64,000 nucleotides of DNA from an uncultured Desulfobacteraceae bacterium (GTDB taxonomy: Bacteria; Desulfobacterota; DSM-4660; Desulfatiglandales; Desulfatiglandaceae): the NCBI GenBank assembly GCA_964409475.1, contig CAYPDL010000006.1:242-64241 (forward strand). Reading direction: 5' to 3'. The position numbers and the translations under genes are program-made. Positions 1,828 to 53,474 of this stretch are shown piece by piece (position 1 is the stretch's first letter; each line of letters starts with the position of its first letter). The notes beneath the pieces were generated by a model that made no database searches, had not been told where the DNA came from, and was given only the letters and a program-made list of their open reading frames with translations.

Positions 1828-1901
1828 ATAATCCTTTCCAAATTTTCACAACTTTAGGCCCTTCGTTTGAATCCTATCACAAAAAACAAGAAATTTTTTT
1901 G

Positions 1902-2004
1902 CCTCTTTGTGGCTCTGTGCCTCTGTGTGAGATATTTTTGGTTGCGGGTATGGCCCGCATTAGACACATTAGCTCACTTTAGTCACTTCACACTTGTCAC
2001 TTCA
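1902..2004. repeat. tandem-word tracts in the dapL/dapB spacer
   Basis: 8-nt period at 1902-1933 (cctctttg tggctctg tgcctctg tgtgagat). 7-nt period at 1984-2004 (cacttca cacttgt cacttca). The last unit overlaps the dapB stop codon. 1969-1981 is the reverse complement of 32495-32507. Confidence 0.85.
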
Positions 2005-2800
2005 ATCCTAACACATCCTGCATGTCATAGAGGCCCCGGGGTTGATGCACCACCCACAGGGCCGCTCTCACGGCCCCCCGGGCAAAATTATCCCGGTTAT
2101 GGGCCCTGTGGATCAGTTCCAGTCGCTCGCCGATCCCGCCGAACATCACCGTGTGCTCGCCGGTAATGTCCCCGGCCCGCCAGGTCTGGATCCCGATCTC
2201 CTCACGGGTCCTTTCACCGATCATCCCCTTCCGTTCGTAGACCCCTACCCTTTCGAGGTCCCTGTTGGAGGCGTCGGCCAGGATCCGGGCCAGACGCATG
2301 GCCGTCCCGCTCGGGGCATCCTTTTTCAGCCGGTGATGCACCTCCAGGATCTCCATATCATAATCGGACCCCAGGATCCGGGCCATCTCCCCGGCTATCT
2401 TGAACATGACGTTGACGCCAACGCTCATGTTGGGGGCCAAGACACACCGGATTTTTCCGGCAAGGGTCTCCACCTCCTTCAGCACGTCTCCGGTGATGCC
2501 GGTAGTCCCGATAACCATGGCAAGGCCCTTATCGGCAGCAATCCTCATATTATCAAGGGTAGCCTGGGGAGAGGTGAAATCTATCAGCACATCCGCCTGC
2601 TCGGCCGATTTCTGCATAGCGCCTGCAATCGTGACGCCGAGCTCACCAACGCCGGCCAAAAGGCCCGCGTCCTGGCCGACACACGGGTGCTCGGGATGTT
2701 CAAATGCACCGCTCAATGTTGTTTCCGGATTCTGATGAATCATATGAATGATTCGTTGCCCCATCCGACCGGCAGCACCGGCAACCGTAACTTGGATCAT
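1997..2800 (-). CDS. dapB: 4-hydroxy-tetrahydrodipicolinate reductase
   Basis: 267-aa ORF. N-terminal VAGAAGRMG dinucleotide fold and the DapB signature EVHHRLKKDAPSGTA. Confidence 0.92.
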   Translation of the reverse strand: MIQVTVAGAAGRMGQRIIHMIHQNPETTLSGAFEHPEHPCVGQDAGLLAGVGELGVTIAGAMQKSAEQADVLIDFTSPQATLDNMRIAADKGLAMVIGTTGITGDVLKEVETLAGKIRCVLAPNMSVGVNVMFKIAGEMARILGSDYDMEILEVHHRLKKDAPSGTAMRLARILADASNRDLERVGVYERKGMIGERTREEIGIQTWRAGDITGEHTVMFGGIGERLELIHRAHNRDNFARGAVRAALWVVHQPRGLYDMQDVLGLK

Positions 2801-3024
2801 ATCTCCCCCCCGTGAAAAAATCAGGGCCAGTTCTCCACCCCTAACATCTGGTCTGAGGCAAGGCCCGGAAAAGAGTCCATGTGGTCACAGGATCTCCGTA
2901 ACGCCATAAGGCCCCCTGTTTTGTCTTTGTACCGAAAATCTCCGTCGTTTTCAACGAAATTCAGAAAGATTTCGAAAGATGCCGATATTACGCCTGACAG
3001 CTTAAGGCCTCCGTGACGTCCTCT

Positions 3025-3171
3025 TCAGTGATGCCCAGGAAATGGAGAATATTTTTCATTATCCACCACTTCAGCCCCGTGCCTTACCAGGACACCTGTC
3101 AGGGTCGCGGTGATTTCGGCCCGATCAGGCCCGGACACGGTCACCATCAGCAGTCTCTTCCTGTCTTCCAT
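3025..3171 (-). pseudogene. truncated ACT-domain ORF (48 codons)
   Basis: Good SD (aaggag, 9 nt upstream) plus ATG. MEDRKRLLMVTVSGPDRAEITATLTGVLVRHGAEVVD looks like the first beta-alpha-beta of an ACT domain, then runs into a stop after about 48 aa. No continuation in the other frames that I could recognise. Confidence 0.35.
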
Positions 3172-3558
3172 CTTCAAGGGCTCCTTATTGTATGGTTAAT
3201 GAAGGAACAGCCTCCGACGGATTGCCGGTATATGATAGTAACCCAGTTTGATTTTCTCGAAAACAAAAAAGTAGCCGACCTTAATCTATTCTCCCGAACA
3301 ATTGCGAAACATCAAAAGGCTTCTAACGAAATCCCACATTTCGAAATCCATATGAAAAAACAGAATTGTTTAAAAACCAGTTCTACCAATCTCGCTTGGC
3401 TCAAGAAGCTGAAAACACTTGGAGCACTTCTGCCAAAGACAGGATCGAGGACCCGCAAACAGCGAACAGCATCCCGCTGCGAGAAGCCAGGAACCGTTTT
3501 TCATTGACTCATAGAGGAGTTAGATATAAACAGCGTAAGGGTTCGCAGGTTCTGGGTT

Positions 3559-3574
3559 TCCCGCTGCAGCGGGA
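3559..3574. promoter_or_regulatory. perfect 16-bp palindrome tcccgctgcagcggga upstream of the Cys-rich ORF
   Basis: Exact dyad read directly from the sequence, about 110 nt upstream of the ATG at 3683. Function unknown. Confidence 0.25.
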
Positions 3575-3682
3575 TTCAAGATTGGAAACTTTGACGATCT
3601 TGAACCCCATATCATCGAGGGTCCCTGCCATTGATGCTGACCCTCGAAAAATGAGTTGTTTTCATAACTCGGGTGAATCGTA

Positions 3683-4186
3683 ATGCAGAAGCAGGATGAA
3701 AACACCGTTTACAATCGCATGGACAGGGCTTTGAGACTCTATCAGGAACATGGAGAGAGCATTCTCGCAACGCCTGAGATGCAGCGGCTCCTGGGCCTCT
3801 ATGATTCTTCCATAGGACATACGCAGGAGACGGTACGACAGGCCGGGATGGCTGCCGCCTGCGGCCTCTGTGCGGAACAGATCGGGAGTTGCTGTTTTGA
3901 GGAGGTGGAGACATGGTACGATCCGATGCTCCTTCTCATCAATCGATTGTTGAGCGCCGATCTCCCCCGATCTCGAGAGATACCGGGCCAGTGCCTCTTC
4001 CTTGGAGAGGAGGGGTGTCGATTGCGGGCCCGCTATTCGTTCTGCCTGAATTATTTCTGCCCCACGCTCAAGCTGCGACTGAGCCCCGGTTTGATGGATA
4101 TCACGCTGGCTGCCATTGGACAGGAGCTTGCCGCTGGATGGGAATTGGAACAGGCGCTGTATCGATGGCTTAAGAAATCGTCCTGA
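3683..4186 (+). CDS. cysteine-cluster protein (YkgJ/CxxCxxCC-like)
   Basis: 167-aa ORF with CGLCAEQIGSCC followed by CLFLGEEGCRL and FCLNYFC. This Cys spacing resembles the putative Zn/Fe-chelating YkgJ family. Confidence 0.5.
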   Translation: MQKQDENTVYNRMDRALRLYQEHGESILATPEMQRLLGLYDSSIGHTQETVRQAGMAAACGLCAEQIGSCCFEEVETWYDPMLLLINRLLSADLPRSREIPGQCLFLGEEGCRLRARYSFCLNYFCPTLKLRLSPGLMDITLAAIGQELAAGWELEQALYRWLKKSS

Positions 4187-4199
4187 AAGGGCGGTCCGA

Positions 4200-4403
4200 A
4201 TGGCCTGCAAATGGTATCATATCTGTCCTCTCAGACGGTTTGAGAGATTGGGTCTGATCGACCGACGCCGGGCAGATGCGTACTGTAAATCCGATGCCCA
4301 TTGGAAGGCATGCAGGCGCTATCAACTTGAGGAAGAGGGAATCCCTCATCCGGACAACCTGTTGCCCGACGGCCGGATATGCCATGAGCTGGTTGCTGAT
4401 TAA
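4200..4403 (+). CDS. small Cys-containing conserved-looking protein (67 aa)
   Basis: Internal ATG of ORF 4116..4403, located 14 nt after the previous stop. MACKWYHICPLRRFERLGLID..YCKSDAHWKACRRY..PHPDNLLPDG. Confidence 0.4.
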   Translation: MACKWYHICPLRRFERLGLIDRRRADAYCKSDAHWKACRRYQLEEEGIPHPDNLLPDGRICHELVAD

Positions 4404-4464
4404 AATGAAACCTCTTGATGAATGTGCCTGATACAAAGCACAACGATCGAACAGCGAGGAATTG

Positions 4465-4689
4465 ATGGAATCTCGTAAAGATCAGGCTTCGGGAGTTTTC
4501 CCACGAAAGCAGACAGTCGCCCTCCTCCTGGCCCTGATTCTGCTCACTGGGTTTGGGTGTTCGGGCGTCCCCCCGGCAGGGGGTAAGCCCCACAATGAAT
4601 CAGCAATCCCGCTGACGGGATTTTCAACCAGCAACCAGAGCGAGTTTCATATGAGTTTCTTGACCTGCTCAGTCAGGGCTGAAGTTTAA
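4465..4689 (+). CDS. possible small secreted/lipoprotein-like ORF
   Basis: Hydrophobic segment VALLLALILLTGFGCSG. Weak start context and no family recognised. Confidence 0.2.
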   Translation: MESRKDQASGVFPRKQTVALLLALILLTGFGCSGVPPAGGKPHNESAIPLTGFSTSNQSEFHMSFLTCSVRAEV

Positions 4690-4708
4690 AAATTTTTCGC
4701 AGTCCCTC

Positions 4709-4737
4709 TTGACAGTTTCGAATTCCGAATTACTTAT
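4709..4737 (+). promoter_or_regulatory. possible promoter upstream of the hsp20 pair
   Basis: TTGACA at 4709-4714, a 17-nt spacer, then a weak -10 (acttat). Followed by a 7-bp hairpin ggacctt/aaggtcc at 4760-4777 in the 115-nt leader. Confidence 0.25.
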
Positions 4738-4853
4738 TTTACAACATTCATGGATCGGTGGACCTTCTGAAAGGTCCTGAAGAGGATGCTGCTTTTGGGG
4801 CTTTTCACCACCAACCAACCTAACCAATTATATAATGAAAGGAGGGATGGTTC

Positions 4854-5321
4854 ATGTTATTGAGAAGAACAGCGAATTCGCCCGCATGGGATTGGACAAG
4901 TCCATTTGAGCAACTGGAACGGTTGAGAAAGCAGATCAACTTGCTTTCTGGCGGGCCCACAGGAGAACGGTTGTGGACTACACCTGCAGCCGGTGTTTTT
5001 CCTCTCATAAACGTCACCGAGGATAAAGACAATTATTACGTCCGTGCCGAGCTTCCCGGTCTCAAGGCAGATGATCTGGAACTCTCTGTGACAGGGGAGA
5101 CCCTCTCCATTTCCGGTGAGAGGAAGATTCCTGCCGAAGACGAGAAGGCCCAATATCATCGAAGGGAAAGGGATGCCGGAAGATTCAGCCGGATTGTCAG
5201 CCTGCCTGCCCAACTGAATACAGGCAAGGTGGAGGCGAGCTGTACGGACGGCGTCCTCGCGGTGACCCTGCCCAAGGCGGAAGAGGCAAAACCCAGGCAG
5301 ATTGCCGTCAAAACATCCTGA
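4854..5321 (+). CDS. Hsp20/alpha-crystallin family small heat-shock protein
   Basis: 155-aa ORF with SD aaggaggg. Alpha-crystallin core YYVRAELPGLKADDLELSV..GVLAVTLPK. Confidence 0.9.
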   Translation: MLLRRTANSPAWDWTSPFEQLERLRKQINLLSGGPTGERLWTTPAAGVFPLINVTEDKDNYYVRAELPGLKADDLELSVTGETLSISGERKIPAEDEKAQYHRRERDAGRFSRIVSLPAQLNTGKVEASCTDGVLAVTLPKAEEAKPRQIAVKTS

Positions 5322-5342
5322 GATGGAAAGGAGGGATATGAC

Positions 5343-5750
5343 ATGACGGATATGGATAGAAAAGCCCTTCAGGCAAAAGAAAAAGCAGAGGTGACCACGC
5401 CTGGCGAGCAGACCCGGCCGGGGCTGGTTTTCACGCCGGCGGTGGATATATTTGAAACCGAAAAGGAGATCACCCTCCTGGCCGATATGCCTGGGGTGAA
5501 ATCCGGAGACCTGGATATTGATCTTCGCGACAATATGCTTACCCTGCACGGCGACGTGAAATCGCCCGAAGGGGCCGACGAGGTCGATGTTATCAGGGAG
5601 TACCGCACAGGCAAATACTACAGACAGTTCACGCTGTCACAGGTCATTGATCAGCCAAAGATAGACGCTGAATTGAAGGACGGGGTCCTTCGTCTGCGGC
5701 TTCCAAAGGTTGAAGCGGCAACCCCCCGCAGGATCGCAATAAAGAGTTGA
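5343..5750 (+). CDS. Hsp20/alpha-crystallin family small heat-shock protein
   Basis: 135-aa ORF, second tandem copy. ITLLADMPGVKSGDLDIDL..GVLRLRLPK. Confidence 0.9.
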   Translation: MTDMDRKALQAKEKAEVTTPGEQTRPGLVFTPAVDIFETEKEITLLADMPGVKSGDLDIDLRDNMLTLHGDVKSPEGADEVDVIREYRTGKYYRQFTLSQVIDQPKIDAELKDGVLRLRLPKVEAATPRRIAIKS

Positions 5751-6045
5751 TCAATCCTGAAATTGCTCAGAGCGGCGAGTTGATGCATAAAAATCAGGCC
5801 AACTCCTTAGCCAATCGCCGCTCTGGGGTCCTCCTCACACATGTAAAATCTTTCCTTTAACTCCTTGGACGATAGTCCGAACTCTTTTCTTCCACGGATC
5901 TGGACATCAGGGATCAGGTTGGCCTTCCCCTCTGGAACTGCTCAAAAATGGAGACAAAGGGCAGGGTTGTACAAGCCTCCCTCGGTGACGGACGGGTGGT
6001 GATCATCGAGATTCAGAGCCTGGTGATTCTCCTTGATAACGTCAA

Positions 6046-6285
6046 TCACTCAGGTAGAACCAGATTCCAATAGGTTGCCGACCTTTCGTCAAGAATACCC
6101 GGAGGTCGTCCATTTAAAGCTTGCCGGAATTGCCGGTCCGAAAAATGCCGGCGCATGGTCGGTATATCTGTGTCGAGACAGTATTGCATGAAATACACAA
6201 GAAACCGGTCTTTGTCGCGAATCAGTTTCTCGGGCGACTCAAACCAATTTACACGCAGGGCGATCTGTCTGAGTTGTTCGTTCAT
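6046..6285 (-). CDS. small hypothetical protein downstream of the AbiEii-like gene
   Basis: Internal ATG (MNEQLRQIALRVNWFESPEKL...) 30 nt after the upstream stop. The longer 107-aa version would overlap the upstream gene by 55 nt. No family recognised. Confidence 0.45.
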   Translation of the reverse strand: MNEQLRQIALRVNWFESPEKLIRDKDRFLVYFMQYCLDTDIPTMRRHFSDRQFRQALNGRPPGILDERSATYWNLVLPE

Positions 6286-6314
6286 GGTCACAAATGGTTG
6301 GGATCCTGCTGAAT

Positions 6315-6980
6315 TTATTGTCCAATAATGCCCGTACAGGCCATTTCGGGGATATTGGCGAGGTCGCATGTTTTCACTTTTAAGATCAAATCCTTTTTGA
6401 TGTCATCAGCCAATGTCATGACGTTGCCGTTTTCAAAAAAGCAGAGCGCCTTCAATGTCAAAATCGAATTGTATTGCCGCCCATAAATCGCCCGCGCGGC
6501 GCCGATGCCGTGCTCCAGGGTCAGATCTGTCTTTGTTATGATCGAATGAATATCAATATAGTCTTTGGCCTCCGCCCGTTGGCTCACCGTAGCACATTTC
6601 ATCCCCAGCAAATCCACAAGGGAAGCGACGGATAATCCATTAGCCGCCTTGTCAGGCCGATGAATCTGTCCAAGTCTCAGTCCGCCGAAAAAACTTAATT
6701 TGACCGGTCGATCAAAACCGGCGACCGTCATCAACAGGGTAAGGGTATTATAACTTTCCTGCAACCGCCTCCCCAGGCCCAGAAAATCCATTTCTCGCAC
6801 CAACTGATCCGTCGTAAAATCAGTGCTGGTGAAAAAGTCAAAGTCAACGGACTCACGATGAGCAATACGCAAGGCAATTGCCGTGCCCCCATATAGCACG
6901 AAACGCGCCGACACCTTCCCCAATAGGGGCCAGAGTTCCTTCTGAACCTGGGATAAGATCGATAATCGAAATATTTCCAT
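6315..6980 (-). CDS. AbiEii/AbiGii-type nucleotidyltransferase (DUF1814-like)
   Basis: FVLYGGTAIALRIAHRESVDFDFF has the GG[TS] plus DxD nucleotidyltransferase motifs in the arrangement typical of AbiEii toxins, with a later AKDYIDIHSI. Start taken at ATG 6980 (MEIFRLS). The ORF track extends to a TTG at 7019. Confidence 0.6.
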   Translation of the reverse strand: MEIFRLSILSQVQKELWPLLGKVSARFVLYGGTAIALRIAHRESVDFDFFTSTDFTTDQLVREMDFLGLGRRLQESYNTLTLLMTVAGFDRPVKLSFFGGLRLGQIHRPDKAANGLSVASLVDLLGMKCATVSQRAEAKDYIDIHSIITKTDLTLEHGIGAARAIYGRQYNSILTLKALCFFENGNVMTLADDIKKDLILKVKTCDLANIPEMACTGIIGQ

Positions 6981-7128
6981 TATGTTATCACCATTGATGA
7001 CACCACGGGCGATGCCCAAAGCCCAACGGTTCCCGAGAATTCATGACGTTCCGATTTCCCGTTGACTGTTTAATCCATCGAAACCATACCACAATCGACA
7101 TTTTTTTCAAACACGAAACAGACAAATA

Positions 7129-7261
7129 CAGCAATTCTCATTTTGCGATTGAATAGTCCGTATCGCGCCGTTTGAAGTGTCGCCGTAAGGCGATTTTTTA
7201 GGGCCTACGGCCCCACTACAAGCCTATCACATCACTGCGGAAGGCAAAATGAGAATTGCTG
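7129..7261. mobile_element. MITE-like element: perfect 18-bp terminal inverted repeats plus a 9-bp flanking direct repeat
   Basis: cagcaattctcattttgc (7129-7146) is the exact reverse complement of 7244-7261. The flanks agacaaata (7120-7128) and aaacaaata (7262-7270) match 8/9. The 97-nt interior has no ORF. Confidence 0.6.
7180..7199 (+). terminator. intrinsic-terminator-like hairpin inside the MITE-like element
   Basis: tcgcc-gtaa-ggcga followed by T6. A second tight GC hairpin gggcc-tac-ggccc lies at 7201-7213. Confidence 0.4.
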
Positions 7262-7545
7262 AAACAAATAGTACGATTCATTGTTTTGATGATATGCAGC
7301 ATGGTGGATCTGAAGTTGGCATAAACGTCACGGAAGGACAGGATGTCGGTCAACAAGAATCTTGTCCAGTTTTTCTTCCCTGAACGGCCCCCTTCCCTAT
7401 CTCCTTGGTTATAAGAAGGGGTTCGACGCTCTCTTAACAGGGATAGATTTGCACTTTCAAACAGATCAGGTTTATGGTATGGTTACACCCGCTACCGGAA
7501 CCGCCCGGGGAGCAAACAGAATGAAACTGGTTTCGAGGACCTAAG

Positions 7546-7710
7546 ATGGAAGTGCCTATTTCAAAAAAAACATTTATTGTTGAGGACGATCCCGATTCAG
7601 TCAACTTTGCCCGGCGGATCCTGGAAGATCATGGCTACCAGGATAAACCGATTGAACCTGACAAACTGATCAGGACGATCAGGAAAATCATAACTGAAGG
7701 AGATATGTAG
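7546..7710 (+). pseudogene. gutted response-regulator receiver domain (54 aa)
   Basis: MEVPISKKTFIVEDDPDSVNFARRILEDHGYQ (beta1-alpha1 of REC) is joined directly to DKPIEPDKLIRTIRKII (the K-P ... alpha5 end of REC). The phospho-accepting Asp region is absent. Confidence 0.5.
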
Positions 7711-7715
7711 AAAAG

Positions 7716-8789: not shown

Positions 8790-8798
8790 AGGGGTCTC

Positions 8799-9071: not shown

Positions 9072-9076
9072 TAATG

Positions 9077-9181
9077 TTGATGCATTTGTAAAAAGTCAAA
9101 AAAGCGAGATTCGTACTTAATGATTTCAATAGGTTATCCATGCCAAAAAGGCCGAATTCGGACTTTTTACGAGACCATCAA
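9077..9181 (+). repeat. 105-nt dispersed element, copy 1 (hairpin-forming, about 21-nt terminal inverted repeats)
   Basis: Aligns without gaps to the reverse complement of 61074-61178, with 13 mismatches by hand count. Ends are TTGATGCATTTGTAAAAAGTC ... GGACTTTTTACGAGACCATCAA. Confidence 0.85.
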
Positions 9182-9839: not shown

Positions 9840-9843
9840 TCCC

Positions 9844-11408: not shown

Positions 11409-11467
11409 CCGCCGCGTCTTCCCGGTTTTTCATTGAAATTTTATGGATGTTTGCGGTAGTATCTTCA

Positions 11468-11587
11468 GGCACAAGGCACAAGGCATGAGGCAAAGAAGTG
11501 TGGAGTGTAGCGTGTGGAGTTAGAAATTGAAATCGGAATTTTTCATTTTTAAACTTTAGGCACTCCAAACTCGTAACTTCAAACTTG
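11468..11587. repeat. heptamer tracts plus an about 75-nt composite repeat (copy A)
   Basis: ggcacaa ggcacaa ggcatga ggcaaag (11468-11495) and gtgtgga gtgtagc gtgtgga (11498-11518). 11512-11587 is homologous to the reverse complement of 46180-46252. Confidence 0.85.
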
Positions 11588-11700
11588 AAAACCAGTATCC
11601 AGAATTGAGTACCAATAACCCGTTTCATGCAGGTTCCGGGAACTGAGAATGCCTCAATTCCTGAATCTCTCAATTCCTAAATTGGAAATTATCACAAAGC

Positions 11701-19810: not shown

Positions 19811-19936
19811 TAAAACTCTCATCAGTCTGATTTGGGGTAGTCTGTTTCTTCTTTACCAGACTGGCCTTCAGAGTATTCAAGTAGAAGTTTTTGGGGTTTC
19901 GGATGTACATCATGTTGTTTTGAAGCCGTTATTCAA

Positions 19937-19964
19937 TCGACAATCACAAATCGACAATCACAAA
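19937..19964. repeat. tandem tcgacaatcacaaa x2 (two 7-nt words)
   Basis: Exact 14-nt direct repeat. The reverse complement shares the GATTGnn word with the 38405-38425 and 45376-45396 tracts. Confidence 0.85.
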
Positions 19965-20087
19965 TCCTATAGCACGTTACGGCAATTGCAGATCGATCAT
20001 CGATCATTTCCCAGGGGTGCACCCCCAAGGCCTGCACGGGATGGTGGAACCCACAGCACACAACATACACAGATCGGAGGAGTAACC

Positions 20088-22376
20088 ATGATGCTCCATG
20101 ATGAAGCACTTCGGTATCACAAGGAACCTCGACCCGGCAAGATAGAGGTGACGCCCACAAAGCCCTGCCTCTCTCAATCGGATCTGAGTCTGGCCTACAC
20201 GCCGGGCGTTGCCGTCCCCTGTCTCGAAATCCAGAAAAACGGGGAGCTTTCATTTGATTACACCTCCCGGGGCAACCTGGTCGGCGTCATCTCAAACGGC
20301 ACGGCCGTCCTCGGCCTGGGCAATATCGGGGCCCTGGCAGGAAAGCCCGTGATGGAGGGGAAGGCCGTTCTCTTCAAACGGTTTGCAGACATCGATGTCT
20401 TTGACATCGAAATAGATACCACCGATCCGGATGAGTTTATCCGCACGGTTGCGCTCCTGGAACCCACATTCGGCGGCATCAATCTTGAGGACATCAAGGC
20501 CCCGGACTGCTTCTATATCGAGGAGGAACTCAAGAAACAGATGGCCATCCCCGTACTCCACGATGATCAGCACGGCACCGCTATCATCTCCGCCGCGGCC
20601 CTCCTCAATGCCTGTGAGCTGACCGGACGGCGCATGGAAGATCTGCGGGTCGTGGTCAATGGCGCCGGCGCTGCGGCCATGGCCTCTGCCCGGATGTATA
20701 TTACGCTGGGCGTCAAAAGAGAAAATCTCTTTCTCGTGGATTCCAAGGGGGTCATCTACAAAGGCCGCACCCAGGGCATGAACCCTTACAAAGAAAAATT
20801 TGCCATGGAAACGGAGAGGCGCACCCTTGAAGATGCGGTCAGGGGGGCGAACGTCCTCATCGGTCTTTCGGTGAAGGGGGCATTTACACCCGAGCTTCTT
20901 TCATTGATGGCCGAAAAACCGATCATCTTTCCGTTGGCCAATCCGGAGCCGGAGATCGGCTACGAGGAGGCCAAGGCCGCACGCCCGGATGCGATCGTGG
21001 CGACAGGCCGCTCTGACTATCCAAACCAGGTCAACAACGTCCTCGGGTTCCCTTTTATCTTCCGGGGGGCCCTGGATGTTCGGGCCAGGGCCATCAACCA
21101 GGAGATGAAGACTGCGGCGGTCACCGCCCTGGCCCATTTGACAAGGGAGGATGTCCCCGATTCGGTCATCCGGGCCTACGGGGGAAAACCGATTCAATTC
21201 GGACCGGAATACATCATTCCAAAGCCACTGGATACCCGGGTCCTGCTTACCGTAGCCCCAGCAGTGGCAAAGGCCGCCATGGAAAGCGGTGTGGCAAGGA
21301 CCCCATTGAAGGACGAGATCAGGTACATCCAGGAACTGGAGGCACGGCTGGGTCCGGAACGGGAAATCATGCGCAAGGTCATCATCCGGGCCCAGCTCAA
21401 TCCCAAACGCGTCGTGCTGCCCGAAGGGAACCACCCCGTTATCCTGCGCGCGGCCCATCAGGCCGTGCGCCATGGGATATGCACGCCCGTGCTGCTTGGA
21501 AACGAGGAGGACATCCGACGTCTCGCGGAATCACTGCACGTATCCCTTGACGGCATCGAGATCGAGGACAACCTGAAAAGTCCACACCTGGAGCGTTTTG
21601 CAGAAAGCCTGTTTCGCCTCCGTTGCCGCAAGGGATGGTCCATGACCGAGACCCGGCGTCAGTTACGCACACGGTATGTTTTTGGCGCCATGATGGTTCA
21701 CGAAGGCCTGGTGGACGGACAGGTGCACGGCGTTGCCCGCTCATACCCTGACGCCATTCGCCCCGTGCTTCAGGTGATCCCGCGGAGGGGAGACGTTTCA
21801 AAGGTTTCCGGGGTCTATCTCATGATCTCGAAGGGTCGCACCCTCCTTTTTGCAGACCCGACAGTGAACATAACCCCCTCTGCCGGCGACCTGGCGGAAA
21901 TCGCCGTGCTGGCGGCTGAAATGGCCAGGTTCTTTGACATAAGCCCACGGGTGGCCATGATCTCTTTTTCCAACTTCGGAAATACGCGCCACCCCGATGC
22001 CGAAAGGGTCAAAGAGGCCGTCCGCATAGCCCGAGAGAAGAACCCCGACCTGATCATCGACGGCGAGATGCAGGCGGATACCGCTCTGGTCGCTGAAATC
22101 CTGCAGAAGGAGTATCCCTTCAACCGTTTGGGAGGTACGGCCAATGTCCTGGTTTTTCCTGAACTGGCCGCCGCCAATGTCGCCTACAAGCTCCTGGAAA
22201 GGCTGGGCGGCGCCAAGGCGGTAGGCCCCCTCCTGATGGGGATCAGCAAGCCATTCAATGTCCTTCAACGGGGCGCAGACATGGAAAACGTCCTCAATGT
22301 GATCGCCATCACCGTAGCCCAGGCCCAACATATGGAGATAAAACAAGAATCAGGAACCACTCAGTTAGACCCATAG
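20088..22376 (+). CDS. maeB: NADP-dependent malic enzyme with a C-terminal phosphotransacetylase-like domain
   Basis: Start at ATG 20088 (ggagg 7 nt upstream), [36 protein letters not shown] malic-enzyme motif, 762 aa. The upstream part of ORF 19797.. runs through repeat DNA. Confidence 0.9.
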
Positions 22377-26462: not shown

Positions 26463-26775
26463 TGCTGCCTCCGTCAGTCACTTTCCTTCCTGGATCGACC
26501 TTCCCCACCCGTTTCTCGACCTCTTTCTTGGTGAAACCCTCCACCGACATGAATTGCGCATTGTCCACCATAAGCTCAGTGCGAAACCAGGCCCGCAGTC
26601 GGATCTCATTTTATGTAGCGCTGGACACGCCTTTTTCAACAGGGCTTTTGACGCTTCAAGTTGATTACTCTGAAGAATGAGGTTGCCAAGGTTCAGGGTT
26701 CAAGGTCCGATAAAGGCATAGTCAACAAATCATATATCAAAGGAAGGTGTGACTCAAGCGGAATTAATGCACAAT

Positions 26776-32461: not shown

Positions 32462-32637
32462 AGGCCAAACCTCGCTTAAGTGATCTAAAATGCCTAAAGT
32501 GAGCTAAAGTTTAAATTTGGATTTTTTATTTCCACAACTTTAGTCACTTCAAACTTCACACTTCAAACTGCCATTTCAAGAGAGTTAAAGTGCCTAAAGT
32601 TTAAGCGCAGTGCCATTGTTTGGACTACGCCGACTGC
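32462..32637. repeat. repeat-filled 176-nt spacer between the livH-like and livM-like genes
   Basis: cacttca aacttca cacttca aactg (32545-32570). gcctaaagt/gagctaaagt (32492-32510). gtgcctaaagttt (32590-32602) is the reverse complement of 11551-11563. Confidence 0.85.
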
Positions 32638-36323: not shown

Positions 36324-36959
36324 ATTACGGGCCTCCATTTTGCAGTTAGGATTTTGTTTCACTCGGCTGTTACAAAAAAGAATTGGCCACGCTATCGTCA
36401 CTGGTCAGCAACGCTCATCGGGCTCGGCTGTTCACCGCAGTAGATGCGACATGCGCCATTAAGGACATGGCGCCTTGTTGATCATTCGGATTTCTGCAAT
36501 CTCCACGGTTTCGTCCGCTCATGGGTTTGCGCAGTTCATCAGATATTTGAACCGCTGCTTGTCGGCAGCGTCTCATCGATTATGGATCGGGCCATGAAAA
36601 AAATCGGTTCTGCCTTCGTTCGGTCTAAACAGATATAGGATCTTAAATAATATTTCACGTATGCAGTGTATCTTATGCCTCAATGGAAACGGCAGCGATG
36701 ATGACGTGTTTCACGTAAGCGGATTTAGAAACGACCGGTTGCCTATTTTCATGGTATTTGATTTGAGACTCTTTATTCAAAGCCAGTATCTGAGATAGGA
36801 ATCTTTTATGCCTTAACTCAAATGTCTTATATTTCTTTACAAAACGGACAATGGGCTCCGAAATGCGATTACACAATTAATCGGTCGTTCTCCTTTTGTC
36901 AACAAAATTTATCAAAAAATAGTCCTCCTATTCCATTCCGGAGCCGATGCCTGCGGGCT

Positions 36960-38380: not shown

Positions 38381-38404
38381 GACAACGCCTCTCAATTATG
38401 TATT

Positions 38405-38425
38405 GACGATTGATGATTGTCGATT
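38405..38425. repeat. heptamer tract gacgatt gatgatt gtcgatt
   Basis: 7-nt period read directly from the sequence. Same GATTG word as 45376-45396 and the reverse complement of 19937-19964. Confidence 0.8.
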
Positions 38426-38985
38426 GAAAACCCTGCAAGCCATCTACGGTTTCCAAATCCCACAGCAGGTTCCCTGTTTCCCCCTGCTACAGGGCAGGCA
38501 AGGTCATGAACCCATGAACCTTTGAAACGCCTTGAACGGTTCCCCATTTTTTTCTTGCAAATCAAAACTGCCGGTGTTATATGTTACGGCTTATGAATTT
38601 TTGAGCCTCATCAGCGAATCCGAGGCTCTTTAGGCCCGGGCGTGTTCATTGGCCGATCCTGACCGGGCGCCTGCACGTATTCACTCTGAAAGTGGCGTTT
38701 TTCAGGTTTTGCGTTCTCCATCAATAACAGAAACAAGCCCCTGTTATTGCCGAACGATGGACCTGGCAACGCTATTAAAAGCCTTTAAACGGGCCCATGG
38801 CCCATGCTGGCGGCTCTTGTCGGAGGATACCAGATCGGGTGGATGATTTCAAGGGTCAATGAACCAAAAAACACAGGTTTGGACTTTTGCCAGGTGCTCT
38901 GCCGCCTTATGGGTATGAGAGTCTCCGAACCGAGGAAAAACCGGCATCGAGATCTGAATCGATCTCACTATCTAAGGAGGATTGA

Positions 38986-40525: not shown

Positions 40526-40727
40526 TCGTTTCCGTGTCGAGCCATGCCCGCCCGTTAGCGTCGCCTTTTTTGATGTTACCGGGGCTCAATTTCTGAATTC
40601 GCACCGCCGGTCTACCCGGGTTGCACAGGTATCCATGCAAAGCCACCCCAACGAAACAATAGAAAAGGGTTTCACGGGGAAGGAAGAGCCACGCATTAAA
40701 AGTCCAGCAAAAGTTTTTTCAAGAAAA

Positions 40728-40759
40728 TCTCCATGTCTCTGTGTCTCCGTGTGAGACCT
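40728..40759. repeat. octamer tract tctccatg tctctgtg tctccgtg tgagacct
   Basis: 8-nt period resembling the 1902-1933 tract. It generates the spurious N-terminal extension of ORF 40733. Confidence 0.8.
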
Positions 40760-40795
40760 TTTTCGTTCCGGCTTGTCCGGATAAGGAGCAGTGCC

Positions 40796-44207: not shown

Positions 44208-44261
44208 TTTGTCAAATCCCGCCTAAGGCGGGATTGAGTAGGTTAAGTCTGGAGAACTCCC

Positions 44262-45362: not shown

Positions 45363-45375
45363 ACCATGTGTCATT

Positions 45376-45490
45376 GATGATTGTTGATTGCTGATTGGAA
45401 AGATTAAACAAATGACGACCCATGACCCCGTAATTTTTGGCGCCCAACCTGCAACTCGCAACTTTTAACTCGTAACTCCCAACTCGTAAC
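45376..45490. repeat. two heptamer tracts in the rseP/tsaB spacer
   Basis: gatgatt gttgatt gctgatt (45376-45396) and aactcgc aactttt aactcgt aactccc aactcgt aac (45453-45490). Confidence 0.9.
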
Positions 45491-45503
45491 GTGTCACTCT
45501 CAT

Positions 45504-46202
45504 ATGATCTTGGCCATCAACACGTCTACCGTCCAATTCTCCCTTGCCCTTCTCTCTGAAAGCGGCGGCCTCGTAGCAGAGCACCTGATGTCTGAGGGAA
45601 AGGGACATTTCGGGAGCCTGATGCCGACCCTTCACTTTCTGCTTAATTCCTCAGAACGGGAGATCCGTGAGGTAAAATGCATTTCAGTTGCAACCGGCCC
45701 GGGAAGCTTTACCGGTCTAAGGATAGGACTCTCTCTTTCAAAAGGATTGTGCCAGGCCCTTCGGGTCCCCATTGTCGGCATATCGACCCTTGAGGCCATG
45801 GCGGTTCAAGCCCCATGTGCGGGTCTGCCCGTAGTCCCCATTCTCCATTCGAGGAAAGGCGAGGTCTTTACTGCCCGATTTATCTGGGAAAATGAAAGAG
45901 GCCTCAAAAGGACAGGCGAAGATACCTGGGTCCGATTTGATGATGCCCCTCTCCTGTTCCAGGAGCCGTCCCTGTTTGTAGGGAACGATTACCCGACCCA
46001 GGGGACACGGCTGAAGGATCTCCTGGGAGAGCGCGCCCTGCTGGCGCCGCTTCACTGCTGGTCTCTGAGGGCCTCTGCCGTCGGATCACTGGCGCTTGAG
46101 AGATTCCTTCAGGGTGACCTGGATGATCCCTGTGCCCTCAACCCGGTCTATCTCCGTCCCCCCGATATCCGACCCAATCCAAGTTTGAAGTTACGAGTTT
46201 GA
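45504..46202 (+). CDS. tsaB: tRNA t6A biosynthesis protein TsaB
   Basis: 232-aa ORF with ILAINTST and ATGPGSFTGLRIG. The last 7 codons are encoded by the heptamer repeat. Confidence 0.82.
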   Translation: MILAINTSTVQFSLALLSESGGLVAEHLMSEGKGHFGSLMPTLHFLLNSSEREIREVKCISVATGPGSFTGLRIGLSLSKGLCQALRVPIVGISTLEAMAVQAPCAGLPVVPILHSRKGEVFTARFIWENERGLKRTGEDTWVRFDDAPLLFQEPSLFVGNDYPTQGTRLKDLLGERALLAPLHCWSLRASAVGSLALERFLQGDLDDPCALNPVYLRPPDIRPNPSLKLRV

Positions 46203-46252
46203 AGTGCCGAAGTTAAGAAAAAAATTCCGACTTAAACTTTTTAACTCCACAC
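46180..46252. repeat. about 75-nt composite repeat (copy B, inverted relative to 11512-11587)
   Basis: Its reverse complement, gtgtggagttaaaaagtttaagtcggaatttttttcttaacttcggcacttcaaactcgtaacttcaaacttg, aligns to 11512-11587 with small indels. The block caaactcgtaacttcaaacttg is identical. Confidence 0.85.
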
Positions 46253-47773: not shown

Positions 47774-47961
47774 GAAATACTGGAATGCTGGAATTGGGGA
47801 ATTGGTATCCGTGAATTCTGCGCCTGCCCCATGAAATGCCTTTTGTGTTCTATTTCATCGGGGTAATCTGTGGATGGGATTGAGGAATTCAGAAATTCAG
47901 CCGCCGACTTTAGGCATTTTAGGCACTTCCATCTAACCACTTACCAGGAGTCGAACGAGGA
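47774..47961. repeat. repeat-filled 188-nt spacer between rsmD and coaD
   Basis: Words ctggaatg/ctggaatt/gggaatt, gaattcag/aaattcag and ctttaggca/ttttaggca, plus hairpin atgaaat-N14-atttcat. These two genes are normally adjacent. Confidence 0.8.
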
Positions 47962-48465
47962 ATGGAAATTTGTAGAAAAACCGCCATTTACCCCGGCTTT
48001 TTTGACCCTATCACCAACGGGCATCTGAGCATTGTGTCACGGGGTCTCGAAATATTTGACCGCTTGATCATTGCCATCTTGAACAACCCCAAAAAGGAAC
48101 CCCTTTTTTCCATACACGAAAGGATAGGGATGATCCAGGAGGCCTTGAAAGGCAACCCGAATATTGAGGTAGAGACCTTTGACGGATTATTGGTTGATTA
48201 TGTGATCCATAAGAAATCAAATATCATCCTGAGAGGACTCCGGGCCCTCTCAGACTTTGAATATGAATTCCAGATGGCACTCATGAACCGGAAATTGAAC
48301 CGTGATGTCCAGTCTGTATTTCTGATGACCGACTATAAATGGTTCTACATCAGTTCCACCATTATCAAAGAAGCGGCAAGCTTTGGCGGAGACGTGAGCG
48401 GTCTCGTTCCGAAATTCGTCAACAACAAACTGAAAGAAAAATTTTTGAAGAGAAAAAATGCTTGA
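47962..48465 (+). CDS. coaD: phosphopantetheine adenylyltransferase
   Basis: 167-aa ORF with AIYPGFFDPITNGH (the T/HxGH motif). Confidence 0.93.
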   Translation: MEICRKTAIYPGFFDPITNGHLSIVSRGLEIFDRLIIAILNNPKKEPLFSIHERIGMIQEALKGNPNIEVETFDGLLVDYVIHKKSNIILRGLRALSDFEYEFQMALMNRKLNRDVQSVFLMTDYKWFYISSTIIKEAASFGGDVSGLVPKFVNNKLKEKFLKRKNA

Positions 48466-48553
48466 CACATCTGTCAGCAGGAGTATATTTCTCTCTAAAA
48501 ATTTGAGACTTAGGTGGTTTTCACCCTGTGGTACAAATGAGGAGGATCATAAG

Positions 48554-48835
48554 GTGGCCCTGACCAAAGAAAAGATCATTGACACTATTTATCATCAGGT
48601 CGGACTCAGTAAGAGCCAATCCCGGACTGTAGCGGAAGGACTCCTTGAGCTCATTAAAGGGACCTTGGAGAAGGGGGAAAACCTCCTGATCAGCGGTTTC
48701 GGCAAACTTGTTGTTAAAGAAAAATCCGCACGGCGGGGGAGAAATCCTCAAACCACTGAAGATCTCCAGCTACGGGCAAGGCGGGTCGTCGTATTCAAGA
48801 CCTCCGGCGTTCTTCGCGACAAGATAAACAAATGA
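48554..48835 (+). CDS. integration host factor / HU family DNA-binding protein
   Basis: GTG start 8 nt after aggagg. LTKEKIIDTIYHQVGLSKSQ..GFGKLVVKEKSARRGRNPQT..VVFKTS. 93 aa. Confidence 0.8.
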   Translation: MALTKEKIIDTIYHQVGLSKSQSRTVAEGLLELIKGTLEKGENLLISGFGKLVVKEKSARRGRNPQTTEDLQLRARRVVVFKTSGVLRDKINK

Positions 48836-48878
48836 CAGGTGCGGAGAACCCGCTTCGGGGGCAACCGGCACAAAGCAC

Positions 48879-49205
48879 CTACCTGAGCACCTCCAGTATC
48901 TTGTGCAGTTCTCCCTTTATCTCTTCGAAAAAAGGGTGCCCAAGGTTTGGCGGCTCGTTCTTTTCCTTTTTGAGGCGTAACTTGGCGCCCTCAAGGGTCA
49001 TTCGTTCCTCATAGAGGAGTCTCTTGATCTCAAGAAGGGTCTCTAGATCTTTTCTTTGGTAGGTCCTCTGCCTGGAATCGGCCCTCCGGGGTCTCAATTG
49101 GGGGAATTCGTTTTCCCAATATCTCAATACATAAGGTTCCACGCCCACGATGCGGCTGGCCTCCCCGATACGAAAGTATCGCCTGTCATCAGGAATCTGG
49201 ACCAT
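48879..49205 (-). CDS. MerR-family transcriptional regulator
   Basis: 108-aa ORF with YFRIGEASRIVGVEPYVLRYWE (MerR HTH). Starts 4 nt after the pheT stop. Confidence 0.8.
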   Translation of the reverse strand: MVQIPDDRRYFRIGEASRIVGVEPYVLRYWENEFPQLRPRRADSRQRTYQRKDLETLLEIKRLLYEERMTLEGAKLRLKKEKNEPPNLGHPFFEEIKGELHKILEVLR

Positions 49206-49208
49206 TTT

Positions 49209-51623: not shown

Positions 51624-51635
51624 ATATTCTTGTGT

Positions 51636-51729
51636 AATTGAGGAATTGCGAATTCAGGGATTCAGGAATTAAAACCAGTTCTCATCCATTCATTCCTCAA
51701 TCCCTTAATCCCTAAATTCCTAAATTCAT
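51636..51729. repeat. repeat-filled pheS/pheT spacer (GGAAT/ATTCC words, imperfect hairpin)
   Basis: aattgagg aattgcg aattcaggg attcagg aatt ... cattcctc aatccctt aatccct aaattcct aaattc. The left and right halves are roughly complementary. Confidence 0.85.
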
Positions 51730-52737
51730 CTAAAATTGTCTCAAAAACCGCATATCGTTTTTGAAAAAGAGCTGAATGTCATCGATCCCGAATTTGAGCA
51801 TGGCAATCCTCTCGATCCCCATCCCGAATGCAAAACCGGAGTAGAGATCCGGGTCGTAATCCACGAATCGGTACACCTCAGGATCAACCATCCCGGATCC
51901 CAATATCTCCAGCCAGCCTGTGTGGGAACAGGTCCTGCACCCGGCTCCTTTGCACATAACGCAGCGGATATCCACCTCAGCGCTCGGCTCTGTAAAGGGG
52001 AAAAAGCTGGGTCTGAAACGAAGGCTGGTATCGCTGCCGAACATCTGGTGGACAAAACTCGTAAGGGTCCCCTTCAGATCGCCAAAGGTAACCCCTTTGT
52101 CCACCAGGAGGCCTTCCACCTGATGGAACATGGGGGTATGTGTCACGTCTGAATCGCGTCGATAGACCTTGCCGGGGGCAATAATGCTGACAGGCGGCTT
52201 GTGGGATTCCATCACGCGGACCTGCATGGGCGAGGTGTGGGTTCGCAGGACGACATTGTCAGAAATGTAAAAGGTATCCTGCATATCCCGGGCAGGATGG
52301 TCTTTGGGTATGTTGAGCGCCTCGAAATTGTAATAGTCCAGCTCTACATTGGGTCCTTTCACCACCCTGAATCCCATTCTCGAAAAGATCCTGCAGACAT
52401 CTTGTATGACTGACGTGATGGGGTGATGGTGTCCACGAAGAGGCTCTCTTCCCGGCAGGGTCAGGTCCATAAAACCGGCCCCGCTTCCCTTTCTGGAACC
52501 CAGAAGCTCCTTTGCCTGCTGAAAGCGTTCTGAGAGACTTTTTTTGATAAGGTTTGCTAACTTCCCGATCTCAGGACGTTCTTCGGCCGTCAGGCTGCCG
52601 ACACCCTTCATGAACGACGTAAGCTGACCCTTTTTGCCTAAATATTTGATCCGGAATTGCTCGAGCGCCGGGAGATCCGTAATCGCGTCAATTTCCTTCA
52701 GGGCGCGTGCTTCCAGTTCAAGGAGTTGCTCTTTCAT
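51730..52737 (-). CDS. pheS: phenylalanine--tRNA ligase alpha subunit
   Basis: 335-aa ORF with class II motifs (HPARDMQDTF; FRPSFFPFTEPS; GFAFGMGIERI). Confidence 0.95.
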   Translation of the reverse strand: MKEQLLELEARALKEIDAITDLPALEQFRIKYLGKKGQLTSFMKGVGSLTAEERPEIGKLANLIKKSLSERFQQAKELLGSRKGSGAGFMDLTLPGREPLRGHHHPITSVIQDVCRIFSRMGFRVVKGPNVELDYYNFEALNIPKDHPARDMQDTFYISDNVVLRTHTSPMQVRVMESHKPPVSIIAPGKVYRRDSDVTHTPMFHQVEGLLVDKGVTFGDLKGTLTSFVHQMFGSDTSLRFRPSFFPFTEPSAEVDIRCVMCKGAGCRTCSHTGWLEILGSGMVDPEVYRFVDYDPDLYSGFAFGMGIERIAMLKFGIDDIQLFFKNDMRFLRQF

Positions 52738-52766
52738 CAGATTGTCTGTTGGAGATGTGAGGTGGG

Positions 52767-53111
52767 CTACTGGGCCATGCTCACTAACCGGGAAAAGGCC
52801 GCGGGATCATGGACCGCCATATCGGCGATCGCCTTACGATCCAAAAGGATCCCCGCCCTCTGAAGGCCTCCGATGAACCGGCTGTAGGAGAGCCCATGCT
52901 CTCTGGCAGCGGCGTTGATCCTGACAATCCAGAGACTGCGGAAATCCCGTTTCCGCGTCTTCCGATCCCGGTAGGCGTACACGCCGGCCCTCATGACCGT
53001 CGTCGCGGCTGTCCTGAGCTGTTTACTGTGCCCTCCCCGGTAGCCTTTCGCAGCCTTCAATATCTTATTTCTTCTTCTCCTGGCCTTAAAGCCTCTTTTT
53101 ACCCTTGGCAT
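52767..53111 (-). CDS. rplT: 50S ribosomal protein L20
   Basis: 114-aa ORF starting [19 protein letters not shown]. Confidence 0.95.
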
Positions 53112-53388
53112 GGTTAAACCTCTTTTATGGTATTAGCGAAACTCTGTCTCATGTCACACCTGAGCCATTACTTCACGATGCAGTTTATGGTTGCCCGGTG
53201 CCGGATACAATGATGAATAGGCTCTGTTGCAAATTCCAATATCCAGTACAGGACATCCCCTACCCGTTTACTGCCGATGCAATACATCGGCTCAACATTC
53301 ACGATCTTGGCCCACAGCGCCAACTGTCAGATTTCAAGTTTATCAATAAATAGCCTCAAAAAGGCACAAAACGCACAGAAACCAAAAT

Positions 53389-53436
53389 CTGATTCCTGAA
53401 TTCCTCAGTTCCTCAATCGCTGAATTCCCGATTCCG
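53389..53436. repeat. octamer tract in the rpmI/rplT spacer
   Basis: ctgattcc tgaattcc tcagttcc tcaatcgc tgaattcc cgattccg, a strict 8-nt phase. Confidence 0.9.
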
Positions 53437-53474
53437 TATAGAAAGGCCTTTTTGCGCGGGCCTCAATAAAAGGA

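Follow-up and report, generated by a model that had tools for sequence, protein, structure and literature searches.

We analysed a 64,000-nt stretch of contig CAYPDL010000006.1 (assembly GCA_964409475.1; hereafter the window), a chromosomal segment of an uncultured Desulfobacteraceae bacterium with a G+C content of 52%. Pfam and NCBIfam scans identified its genes, which include folK, a dapL-type aminotransferase gene, dapB, uvrC, maeB and a liv-type ABC transporter, the set rpsB-tsf-frr-uppS-cdsA-dxr-rseP-tsaB-psd-rsmD-coaD-ihfA, and the set thrS-infC-rpmI-rplT-pheS-pheT. Several spacers between these genes, including spacers inside conserved operons, carry short tandem arrays of degenerate 7- and 8-nt words, which we call tracts. 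The many words fall into some five dispersed families (F1-F5). On balance, we favor the view that the tracts are parts of small (~30-240 nt), non-coding, dispersed elements of the foldback type, akin to repetitive extragenic palindromic (REP) sequences and miniature inverted-repeat transposable elements (MITEs), which spread and were then altered by slippage.

The phased 7- and 8-mers are non-random and limited to spacers, as an earlier note on this sequence had proposed, and all the tracts it listed were found where it placed them. Intergenic DNA was taken as the 42 spacers that reach 30 nt or more, 10.2 kb in total. Compared with 200 dinucleotide shuffles, its lag autocorrelation gave z = 7.0 at lag 7, 4.7 at lag 8, 4.0 at lag 9 and 3.4 at lag 16, and no other lag was significant. 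Local tracts of period 7 account for 79 intergenic bases and those of period 8 for 190 (about 1 in shuffles), and neither kind occurs in the 54 kb of coding DNA. Tandem Repeats Finder (TRF) returned 22 rows of period 7-9 in 12 of the 42 spacers, compared with 0.71 ± 0.84 (maximum 3) in 100 shuffles; coding DNA gave five such rows, two of them of period 7 or 8, and coding arrays were mostly of period 9 or 12. By TRF and lag analysis, arrays in the window have unit periods of 7, 8 and 9 and 2.4-5.7 copies, period 8 being as prominent as period 7. The expected excess of period-7/8 signal over shuffled controls is therefore clear, whereas the statement that tracts fill almost every spacer went too far: they occupy 12 of the 42 spacers or, by reading, about 12 of the 29 spacers of at least 100 nt. 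The gene pairs and spacer lengths reported in that note are correct (rsmD/coaD 188 nt, pheS/pheT 106 nt, rpmI/rplT 363 nt, livH/livM 176 nt); the dapL/dapB (dapL-type aminotransferase; 169 nt) and tsf/frr (~270 nt) junctions were confirmed, as was rseP/tsaB (141 nt). Tracts also supply the stop codons of dapB and tsaB, whose translations end inside them (...LGLK-stop and ...SLKLRV-stop). Enrichment of GAATTC-type hexamers is just 3-4-fold and is therefore uninformative. Because independent assemblies of 10 or more samples contain the same window sequences, tracts included, the tracts are not assembly artefacts; samples with this species include ERZ27248920, ERZ27248937, JGI 3300057055 and SRR35817941.

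When the window was compared with itself, tract segments reappeared in unlinked spacers, in either orientation, with their degenerate units arranged alike and with non-repetitive parts in common. The listed words are thus neither independent nor separate products of local slippage, as the earlier note had treated them. F1 (words ACTTTAG, CACTTCA and AACTCGT; complements AGTGTGG, CTAAAGTG and AAGTTTG) spans several of the categories kept apart there and has four copies of ~85 nt. Copies A and B are 84% identical over 77 nt (11512-11587 and, on the other strand, 46252-46180), and nhmmer recovers the copies with E-values of 1e-13 to 1e-19, though the same copies built the model. F2 (word GGAATTNN) occupies four spacers, F4 (GATTGNT) three spacers and F5 (GGTTCAN) three weak sites. 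F3 (word TCTCNGTG) has two copies, one near 1900 and one at 40700-40790, that are 79% identical over ~85 nt; the identity reaches past the tract into its flanks, and the F3 pattern has four matches in the window against 0.07 expected. All family copy numbers were counted within these 64 kb.

Many tracts are paired with an inverted counterpart. In the window together with ~2.2 Mb of related pheS neighborhoods (loci labelled L001 etc.), 82 of 189 period-7/8 tracts (43%) have an inverted partner array within 10-210 nt. The same tracts have a direct partner in 31 cases and a partner at control distance in 12-13 (~6% background), which makes the excess of inverted partners seven-fold over background. 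The foldback that fills the pheS/pheT spacer folds as RNA at -32.2 kcal/mol (z = -3.39) in the sense and -24.0 kcal/mol (z = -3.42) in the antisense direction, and at z = -3.30 as DNA. As terminal inverted repeats, the arms of F1 are imperfect. A gapless inverted-repeat finder missed such degenerate arms and mostly returned other elements.

Turnover could be followed in strain contigs, among them L162, L166 and L172, that were found via the exact window L20 and EF-Ts proteins; the contigs so found are 97.8-100% identical to the window. Their differences from the window concentrate in tracts. Three independent length changes, between strains 98-99.9% identical, involve exactly one unit: L166 has one extra octamer (+8 nt) in one arm of the pheS/pheT foldback, L162 has three TTTAGGCAC 9-mers (+9 nt) against two in the 47876-47930 tract of rsmD/coaD, and L172 has one heptamer (7 nt) fewer in the F4 tract at 38402. 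Larger segments vary as well. About 85 nt, including a hairpin, lie between two F2 tracts of rsmD/coaD in the window and are absent from L162, and L162 (~98% identical) carries a 237-nt foldback that lies within F1 copy B at the stop codon of tsaB, with ~40-nt inverted arms of GGTTCAN heptamers and a fold of -90.8 kcal/mol. Where BLAST splits the alignment of the window with L162 into blocks, four of the five breakpoints lie in tract-bearing spacers, and mismatch between the two is 1.7% in coding DNA, 5.4% in tracts and 3.5% in the rest of the intergenic DNA. Exact-protein look-ups with dapB and livH gave no informative strain variants.

More distant comparisons indicate that the elements come and go at operon junctions. 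In a collection with one genome per species, the nearest relatives by pheS are metagenome-assembled genomes (MAGs) of uncultured Desulfobacteraceae and Desulfobacterales, at no more than 78% identity; contigs from Joint Genome Institute (JGI) metagenomes reach 84-87%. These matches place the host as a Desulfobacterales-like member of Thermodesulfobacteriota. The pheS/pheT junction measures 1-23 nt in five relatives (L002, L067, L082, L088 and L091), one of them at 84% pheS identity, and 72-151 nt in L085, L083, L003 and the window, where it holds different, unrelated tracts or tract hairpins. Such elements have thus been added in particular lineages and are not conserved parts of operons. This agrees with the earlier claim that tracts split normally contiguous genes, as does the ~95-nt rpmI/rplT spacer of L001. 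It was also suggested that unrelated sequence in orthologous spacers would mark the tracts as local noise. The sequences are indeed unrelated in relatives, yet the noise reading fails, because real elements turn over rapidly. L001, the closest relative in GTDB (78% pheS identity), has AT-rich spacers with no tracts and is therefore too distant for spacer alignment.

Tracts of this kind extend beyond the window. Period-7/8 tracts number 4.3 per 100 kb in Thermodesulfobacteriota loci, 10.3 in Nitrospirota loci, 0.6 in other phyla and 15.6 in the window, and period-5/6 counts, which are chance-dominated, are similar in all groups. Recurring words in relatives include GCCTAAAGT in L083 and AATTCCTCAATTC in L082. 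Words were also clustered across loci; GTTCAAA and GGTTCAG recur, yet not clearly above chance when one mismatch, rotation and strand equivalence are allowed, and this clustering was not used.

The dispersal in the window, the inverted-arm architecture in related genomes, the polymorphisms between strains and the lineage-specific occupancy of junctions all argue for small dispersed elements, and two known kinds offer comparison. REP sequences, including bacterial interspersed mosaic elements (BIMEs) and REP doublets forming hairpins (REPINs), are mobilized by REP-associated tyrosine transposases (RAYTs) and targeted by insertion sequences of the IS110 family. Like the window elements, they are short, non-coding and highly repeated extragenic sequences that form species-specific families; many are inverted doublets whose spacing varies, and they lie between genes that are co-directional or convergent. 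However, each REP unit consists of one imperfect palindrome of 20-40 nt that carries a conserved 5' tetranucleotide, whereas the arms in the window are built of 7-8-mers in tandem and share no terminal tetranucleotide. MITE and foldback elements resemble the window class in their non-coding length of 50-250 nt, inverted terminal arms, presence or absence among strains and nested insertion, and foldback arms consist of short tandem repeats. Terminal inverted repeats are seen in the L162 insertion and the pheS/pheT foldback, and insertion polymorphism in the 237-nt and ~85-nt segments. The window elements differ from MITE and foldback elements in that they have no consistent target-site duplication and many solitary arms, and no related autonomous element was found among the scanned open reading frames (ORFs).

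We infer that the elements spread by transposition and are mostly neutral or selfish, not serving the host; more speculatively, the mover could be a hairpin-recognizing single-strand transposase, as for REP/RAYT or IS200/IS605. An element with arms of degenerate tandem 7-8-nt (sometimes 9-nt) units would be copied into a spacer, often into or beside an existing tract and in either orientation, where it would sometimes clip the 3' end of a gene and give it a new stop codon. Change in place would be fast, whole units being gained or lost through replication slippage while point substitutions build up, and partial deletion would leave solitary arms. Operon junctions would tolerate such elements, so that normally tight gene pairs become separated.

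Several observations weigh against this explanation. Pfam and NCBIfam scans, which covered most but not all ORFs of the window, detected neither a transposase gene nor a RAYT-like one. Copy numbers rest on 64 kb, not on a whole genome, and no second copy of the interior of the 237-nt insertion was found in 2.3 Mb. By reading of the alignments, no clear target-site duplication is present at the four F1 copies and none is shared by copies A-C; CGAGTT does stand on both sides of the 237-nt insertion, but as a single case in a repetitive tract. The substitution excess in tracts is small and involves few sites (19 of 354). Gene conversion or recombination between spacers could be another route of dispersal. 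Finally, in the window alone an inverted partner accompanies just about 4 of 16 tracts, and most F1 and F3 copies fold no better than shuffles as DNA (z +0.8 to -2). Foldback is therefore a property of the class and not of every copy, and the stronger idea that all tracts are hairpins was ruled out by the same folding with DNA parameters.

The earlier note knew of no equivalent in this kind of genome, yet papers on two Geobacter species of the same phylum annotate arrays of 3-5 tandem 7-9-mers. In Geobacter metallireducens, 'multicopy nucleotide sequences' of classes 1-3 are putative binding sites of global regulators (Aklujkar et al. 2009, PMC2700814). A class-1 site consists of four GTTGCTYN octamers in tandem, a class-2 site (47 sites in all) of three TCTCCGTS[Y] units and a class-3 site of five MTYCTGA heptamers; one class-3 pair occupies the proB/proA spacer, and GGGACCR x4 makes up a further family (PMC2700814). 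Some class-1 sites have an insertion sequence at a fixed distance, ISGme8 (IS110 family) or ISGme9 (IS481 family), the former recalling the targeting of REP sequences by IS110, and binding of IHF or HU is the authors' guess (PMC2700814). In G. bemidjiensis, multicopy sequences, including direct repeats of 6-42 nt, occur in 12% of spacers, and in the judgement of the authors their 'insertion is not random' (PMC2996986). As in the window, each Geobacter genome has several families, often with several elements per spacer. The Geobacter sites have tens of BLAST-detectable copies in spacers, including spacers within operons, and F1-F4 are likewise multicopy between unlinked spacers, operon junctions included. 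The Geobacter sites are mostly opposite-strand pairs at variable distance, compared with the few paired tracts of the window and the 43% counted over the related loci; they belong to a different order (Geobacterales versus Desulfobacterales-like), and their words are mostly different. What is new here relative to the Geobacter papers is the slippage of units at strain level and the nested insertion.

The same proposal could be applied to the window, with the arrays as phased putative sites for nucleoid or regulatory proteins of the host such as IHF or HU, and with paired arrays bending or bridging DNA and tuning expression. We regard this as unlikely. It was put forward for near-identical architectures in G. 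metallireducens, and phased arrays with inverted pairs are typical of cooperative binding. The window also contains an IHF-alpha gene (48458-48835), probably by coincidence. The F3 word equals the Geobacter class-2 consensus TCTCCGTS, arrays with TCTCCGTG and TCTCTGTG standing at two window sites, and ATTCCTGA and GATTGCT resemble classes 3 and 1, respectively. This identity is confined to one 8-nt word, the other words being merely similar; its chance probability is ~0.02-0.25 by a rough estimate, and homology is therefore not established. A search of 170 related loci turned up no TCTCNGTS array. Several proteins would be needed, as the 64 kb contain at least five unrelated words, and the sites lie mostly within operons or 3' of stop codons, not at promoters. 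Successive sites at a 7-8-nt period would not fall on one face of B-DNA. The arrays also differ or are absent at the orthologous junctions of close relatives, and their unit numbers vary between strains.

We consider it similarly improbable that the tracts act as putative RNA cis elements in polycistronic transcripts, as hairpins or single-strand protein-binding arrays for processing, 3'-end protection or uncoupling of translation. Most tracts do lie between co-directional genes of conserved operons, and REP/BIME hairpins in E. coli do some jobs of this kind. Some window spacers fold better in the sense direction, with more G-U pairs (livH/livM, -50.8 versus -37.5 kcal/mol; rpmI/rplT, -106 versus -81 kcal/mol), F1 copy A has z = -3.34 in the sense (plus) and -2.01 in the antisense (minus) direction, and the last unit of the F3 copy in tsf/frr makes a small terminator-like hairpin with a T run after tsf. 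However, this suggestive comparison, confined to the window, did not generalize: across 35 inverted pairs with co-directional flanks, sense and antisense folding showed no bias (15 versus 19-20, Wilcoxon p = 0.57-0.95), and selection at the RNA level was set aside. The two F3 copies have opposite orientations relative to transcription, the four F1 copies share no one orientation relative to their flanking genes, and the pheS/pheT hairpin is equally significant on both strands. The RNA-processing role suggested in the earlier note is thus unsupported. Terminator-like sites are not enriched (29 versus 21 ± 5 in shuffles; just two touch tracts), and a promoter scan of the window gave no enrichment and few sites overlapping tracts. 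Rfam returned no match to the window at gathering thresholds or at E <= 1, a scan of the window for tRNAs found none, and relatives do with pheS/pheT junctions of 1-23 nt. A precedent for an RNA-level role is the proposal of an RNA-binding protein, or a translational role, for TAACTGA direct repeats in marine Beggiatoaceae, which also occur in some Cyanobacteria and Bacteroidetes (MacGregor 2015, PMC4679880). Like the window tracts, these are short heptamer arrays (2-6 copies), abundant in spacers and present in ribosomal-protein operons (PMC4679880). They differ in having one dominant word that is strongly oriented and lies a few nt upstream of start codons, with only one inverted repeat among 170 sets (PMC4679880), whereas the window has several words in both orientations and its relatives show frequent inverted pairing.

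Quite unlikely, in our view, is that the arrays are cis-sites of an unrecognized system common to Thermodesulfobacteriota and Nitrospirota, for example an oligomeric nucleic-acid-binding protein, or a recombinase, each of whose subunits would read one unit. Under such a system, paired arrays would punctuate operons or organize the nucleoid, and the identity of TCTCCGTG with Geobacter class 2 would reflect a conserved partner and not chance. In a related scenario, a dedicated mechanism of templated synthesis or hairpin copying would generate the arrays, which would account for their restriction to periods of 7-8 nt.

A further comparison is with the short tandemly repeated repetitive (STRR) heptamers of cyanobacteria, reportedly described by Mazel et al. 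in 1990. STRR are tandem heptamers of a few genome-specific words that are confined to non-coding DNA, including spacers within operons, and such spacers vary between relatives. The analogy, drawn in the earlier note, is a fair one, as both are tandem heptamers in non-coding DNA (window period 7, z = 7.0). STRR belong to heterocystous cyanobacteria, a different phylum, however, and their known words (CCCCAGT, TTGGTCA, CAACAGT) are not those of the window, whose arrays have periods 7 and 8 (sometimes 9), are shorter and more degenerate, and form part of longer dispersed elements that also have non-repetitive portions. To our knowledge, the function and origin of STRR are unknown, and the analogy therefore explains little. 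Literature searches combining STRR, REPIN or RAYT with Desulfo- or delta-proteobacterial terms returned nothing specific. Long simple-sequence repeats share with the window a heptanucleotide preference and polymorphism of unit number (PMC4679880, on Mrazek et al. 2007), whereas the window tracts are degenerate and short and have specific strings common to unlinked spacers. The least probable account is that the tracts are purely local repeats of the STRR or long simple-sequence type, each spacer acquiring its own, with no dispersal and no function, by slippage that favors 7-nt units: the exact one-unit polymorphisms between strains, the words that differ among genomes and the rank of heptanucleotides as the commonest long class in prokaryotes, itself explained by slippage (PMC4679880, on Mrazek 2007), agree with it, but shared unit order and non-repetitive flanks over 27-85 nt in unlinked spacers largely contradict independent slippage, and the seven-fold excess of inverted partner arrays and the whole 237-nt element present or absent between strains also stand against it.

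Table 1. Repeat features of the window, with positions on the forward strand
Feature	Position	Strand	Units or parts	Evidence and remarks
F1, copies A to D	11498-11586 (A), 46252-46181 (B), 32493-32570 (C), 1925-2009 (D)
F3	1900-1932	+	octamers TCTTTGTG GCTCTGTG CCTCTGTG, then TGAGA	TRF row; element spans ~1880-1965 including conserved flank and small hairpin
F1 copy D, right arm	1958-2008	+	ACTTTAG / CACTTCA / CACACTT	nhmmer over 1925-2009, E = 1.7e-18 (copy was in model); overlaps stop codon of dapB (1997-2800, minus strand); 30 nt 90% identical to 32537-32566
AGGCACA heptamers	11467-11495	+	AGGCACA x4	TRF; by reading only, a possible 7-nt variant, reverse complement, of F3 word TGTGCCTC
F1 copy A, whole foldback	11498-11586	+	AGTGTGG/AGTGTAG heptamers (left arm), loop, right arm ACTTTAGGCACTCCAAACTCGTAACTTCAAACTTG	nhmmer E = 1.6e-19; DNA fold z = -0.95
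F2	11652-11685	+	CCTCAATT CCTGAATC TCTCAATT CCTAAATT	alignment; 32 nt 87.5% identical to 51695-51726
F4	19934-19967	+	AATCGAC AATCACA, 14-nt unit x2.3; reverse complement of GATTGNT	TRF score 64; 27 nt 89% identical to 38428-38402, other strand
F5, solitary arm, convergent spacer	26686-26708	+	GGTTCAG GGTTCAA GGT	TRF; 15-nt exact match to L162 insertion arm
F1 copy C, livH/livM spacer	32478-32607	+	inverted repeat: left arm CTAAAGTG-type words 32478-32512; right arm AACTTTAGTCACTTCAAACTTCACACTTCAAACT 32536-32569; CTAAAGT segment 32583-32607; outer ends CGCTTAA...TTAAGCG	nhmmer E = 1.4e-13; RNA fold z = -2.24 sense, -0.70 antisense; DNA z = -1.1
F4	38402-38426	+	ATTGACG ATTGATG ATTGTCG ATTG	TRF
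F5	38505-38539	+	CATGAACC CATGAACC TTTGAAAC GCCTTGAACGG	TRF; likeness to right arm of L162 insertion by reading
F3, tsf/frr spacer	40728-40756	+	TCTCCATG TCTCTGTG TCTCCGTG, then TGAGA	pattern match, alignment
F4, rseP/tsaB spacer	45372-45398	+	ATTGATG ATTGTTG ATTGCTG ATTGG	TRF; unit-level substitutions versus L162
F1-like heptamers	45452-45490	+	CAACTCG CAACTTT TAACTCG TAACTCC CAACTCG TAAC	TRF periods 7, 14, 21; ends 14 nt 5' of tsaB start codon
F1 copy B	46181-46252	-		nhmmer E = 2.7e-15; overlaps tsaB stop codon
F2, rsmD/coaD spacer	47780-47805	+	CTGGAATG CTGGAATT GGGGAATT GG	TRF, alignment
Hairpin between two F2 tracts	47826-47863	+	CCCCATGAAAT...ATTTCATCGGGG	within the ~85 nt absent from L162
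F2, then F1-like 9-mers	47876-47930	+	GGGATTGA GGAATTCA GAAATTCA G, then ACTTTAGGC ATTTTAGGC	TRF
F2 foldback filling pheS/pheT spacer	51637-51727	.	arms 51637-51670 (GGAATTNN octamers) and 51692-51727 (NNAATTCC octamers)
F2, rpmI/rplT spacer, solitary arm	53391-53435	+	GATTCCTG AATTCCTC AGTTCCTC AATCGCTG AATTCCCG ATTCC	kept in L162 and L166
F5, weak, upstream of thrS	56678-56698	-	GAACCCATGAACGTATGAA on minus strand	surrounding 76 nt replaced in L162 by 110 unrelated nt with own TGAACC words

Other repeats and spacer features were noted alongside the tracts. A 109-nt element has two copies in the window (9073-9181 and 61074-61182; 87% identical, opposite strands); its terminal inverted repeats (TTGATG..GTAAAAAGT / ACTTTTTAC..CATCAA) are ~20 nt long and it lacks tandem words, and it therefore looks like a conventional MITE. 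Two hairpin elements, at 60892-61054 and 7129-7261, lie in long spacers, one with 24-nt arms that are 92% complementary and 115 nt apart, the other with perfect 18-nt arms 97 nt apart; the 60.6-61.5 kb spacer contains several repeats. The dxr/rseP spacer (44208-44261) is a small hairpin, AAATCCCGC...GCGGGATT, whose loop is 25 nt longer in L162. At 36626, a 20-nt unit (AGATATAGGATCTTAAATAA) is single in the window and a tandem duplicate in L172, a slippage polymorphism outside the 7-8-nt class. In the rpmI/rplT spacer (53112-53474), ~45 of the 363 nt are tract and the remainder is conserved in strains and folds far better in the sense than in the antisense direction; with 25 G-U pairs in the sense and 7 in the antisense fold and no Rfam match, this spacer might hold an unrecognized structured leader for rplT.

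Among the related loci, L003 (1449-6191) and L089, at 63-64% pheS identity, have 10 heptamer tracts each in 21 kb, denser than the window and often in inverted pairs such as TCAGGTG/CACCTGA and GGGTACA/TGTACCC. In L051, a Desulfovibrio MAG, three copies of a G-run element (GGGGGTGGGGG...) lie beside a CCCTTTTGCAAAAGGG palindrome (1231-1257, 4578-4601 and 20069-20092), a dispersed repeat of spacers that is of another kind. Gene content also varies. L162 has an extra 188-aa CBS-domain gene (L162 2808-3497) between the Usp gene and the ABC-transporter gene, where the window has a 44-nt spacer (59572-59615), and the two are no longer collinear past window position 60883. In the window, tsf is followed directly by frr across a ~270-nt spacer (40526-40795), and pyrH, which ordinarily separates the two, is missing from the entire window. 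An AbiEii-type nucleotidyltransferase toxin gene (6046-7019) is overlapped by a small upstream ORF, with which it probably forms a type IV toxin-antitoxin pair, and adjoins four ORFs (3013-5549), all of which lack a Pfam match.

The tracts of the window add to an already known, poorly understood kind of intergenic DNA and reveal no new function. Their consequences, shown or suggested, are longer operon junctions, rewritten gene 3' ends and stop codons, and hairpins inside transcripts, and the elements vary even between strains that are ~98% identical. They are relevant to annotation, where they may give rise to spurious ORFs, shifted stops and false 'regulatory' sites, and to metagenome assembly and strain typing, where single-unit polymorphisms are natural markers. 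Because G. metallireducens is genetically tractable, hypotheses of protein binding and mobility are testable there. The finding also bears on the recurrence of 7-8-nt units in unrelated bacteria, as in cyanobacterial STRR, the TAACTGA repeats of Beggiatoaceae and the Geobacter sites. If our preferred explanation is true, a sizeable share of the intergenic DNA in many sulfate reducers of sediment and groundwater, and in Nitrospirota, would have been built by little-studied small repeat elements.

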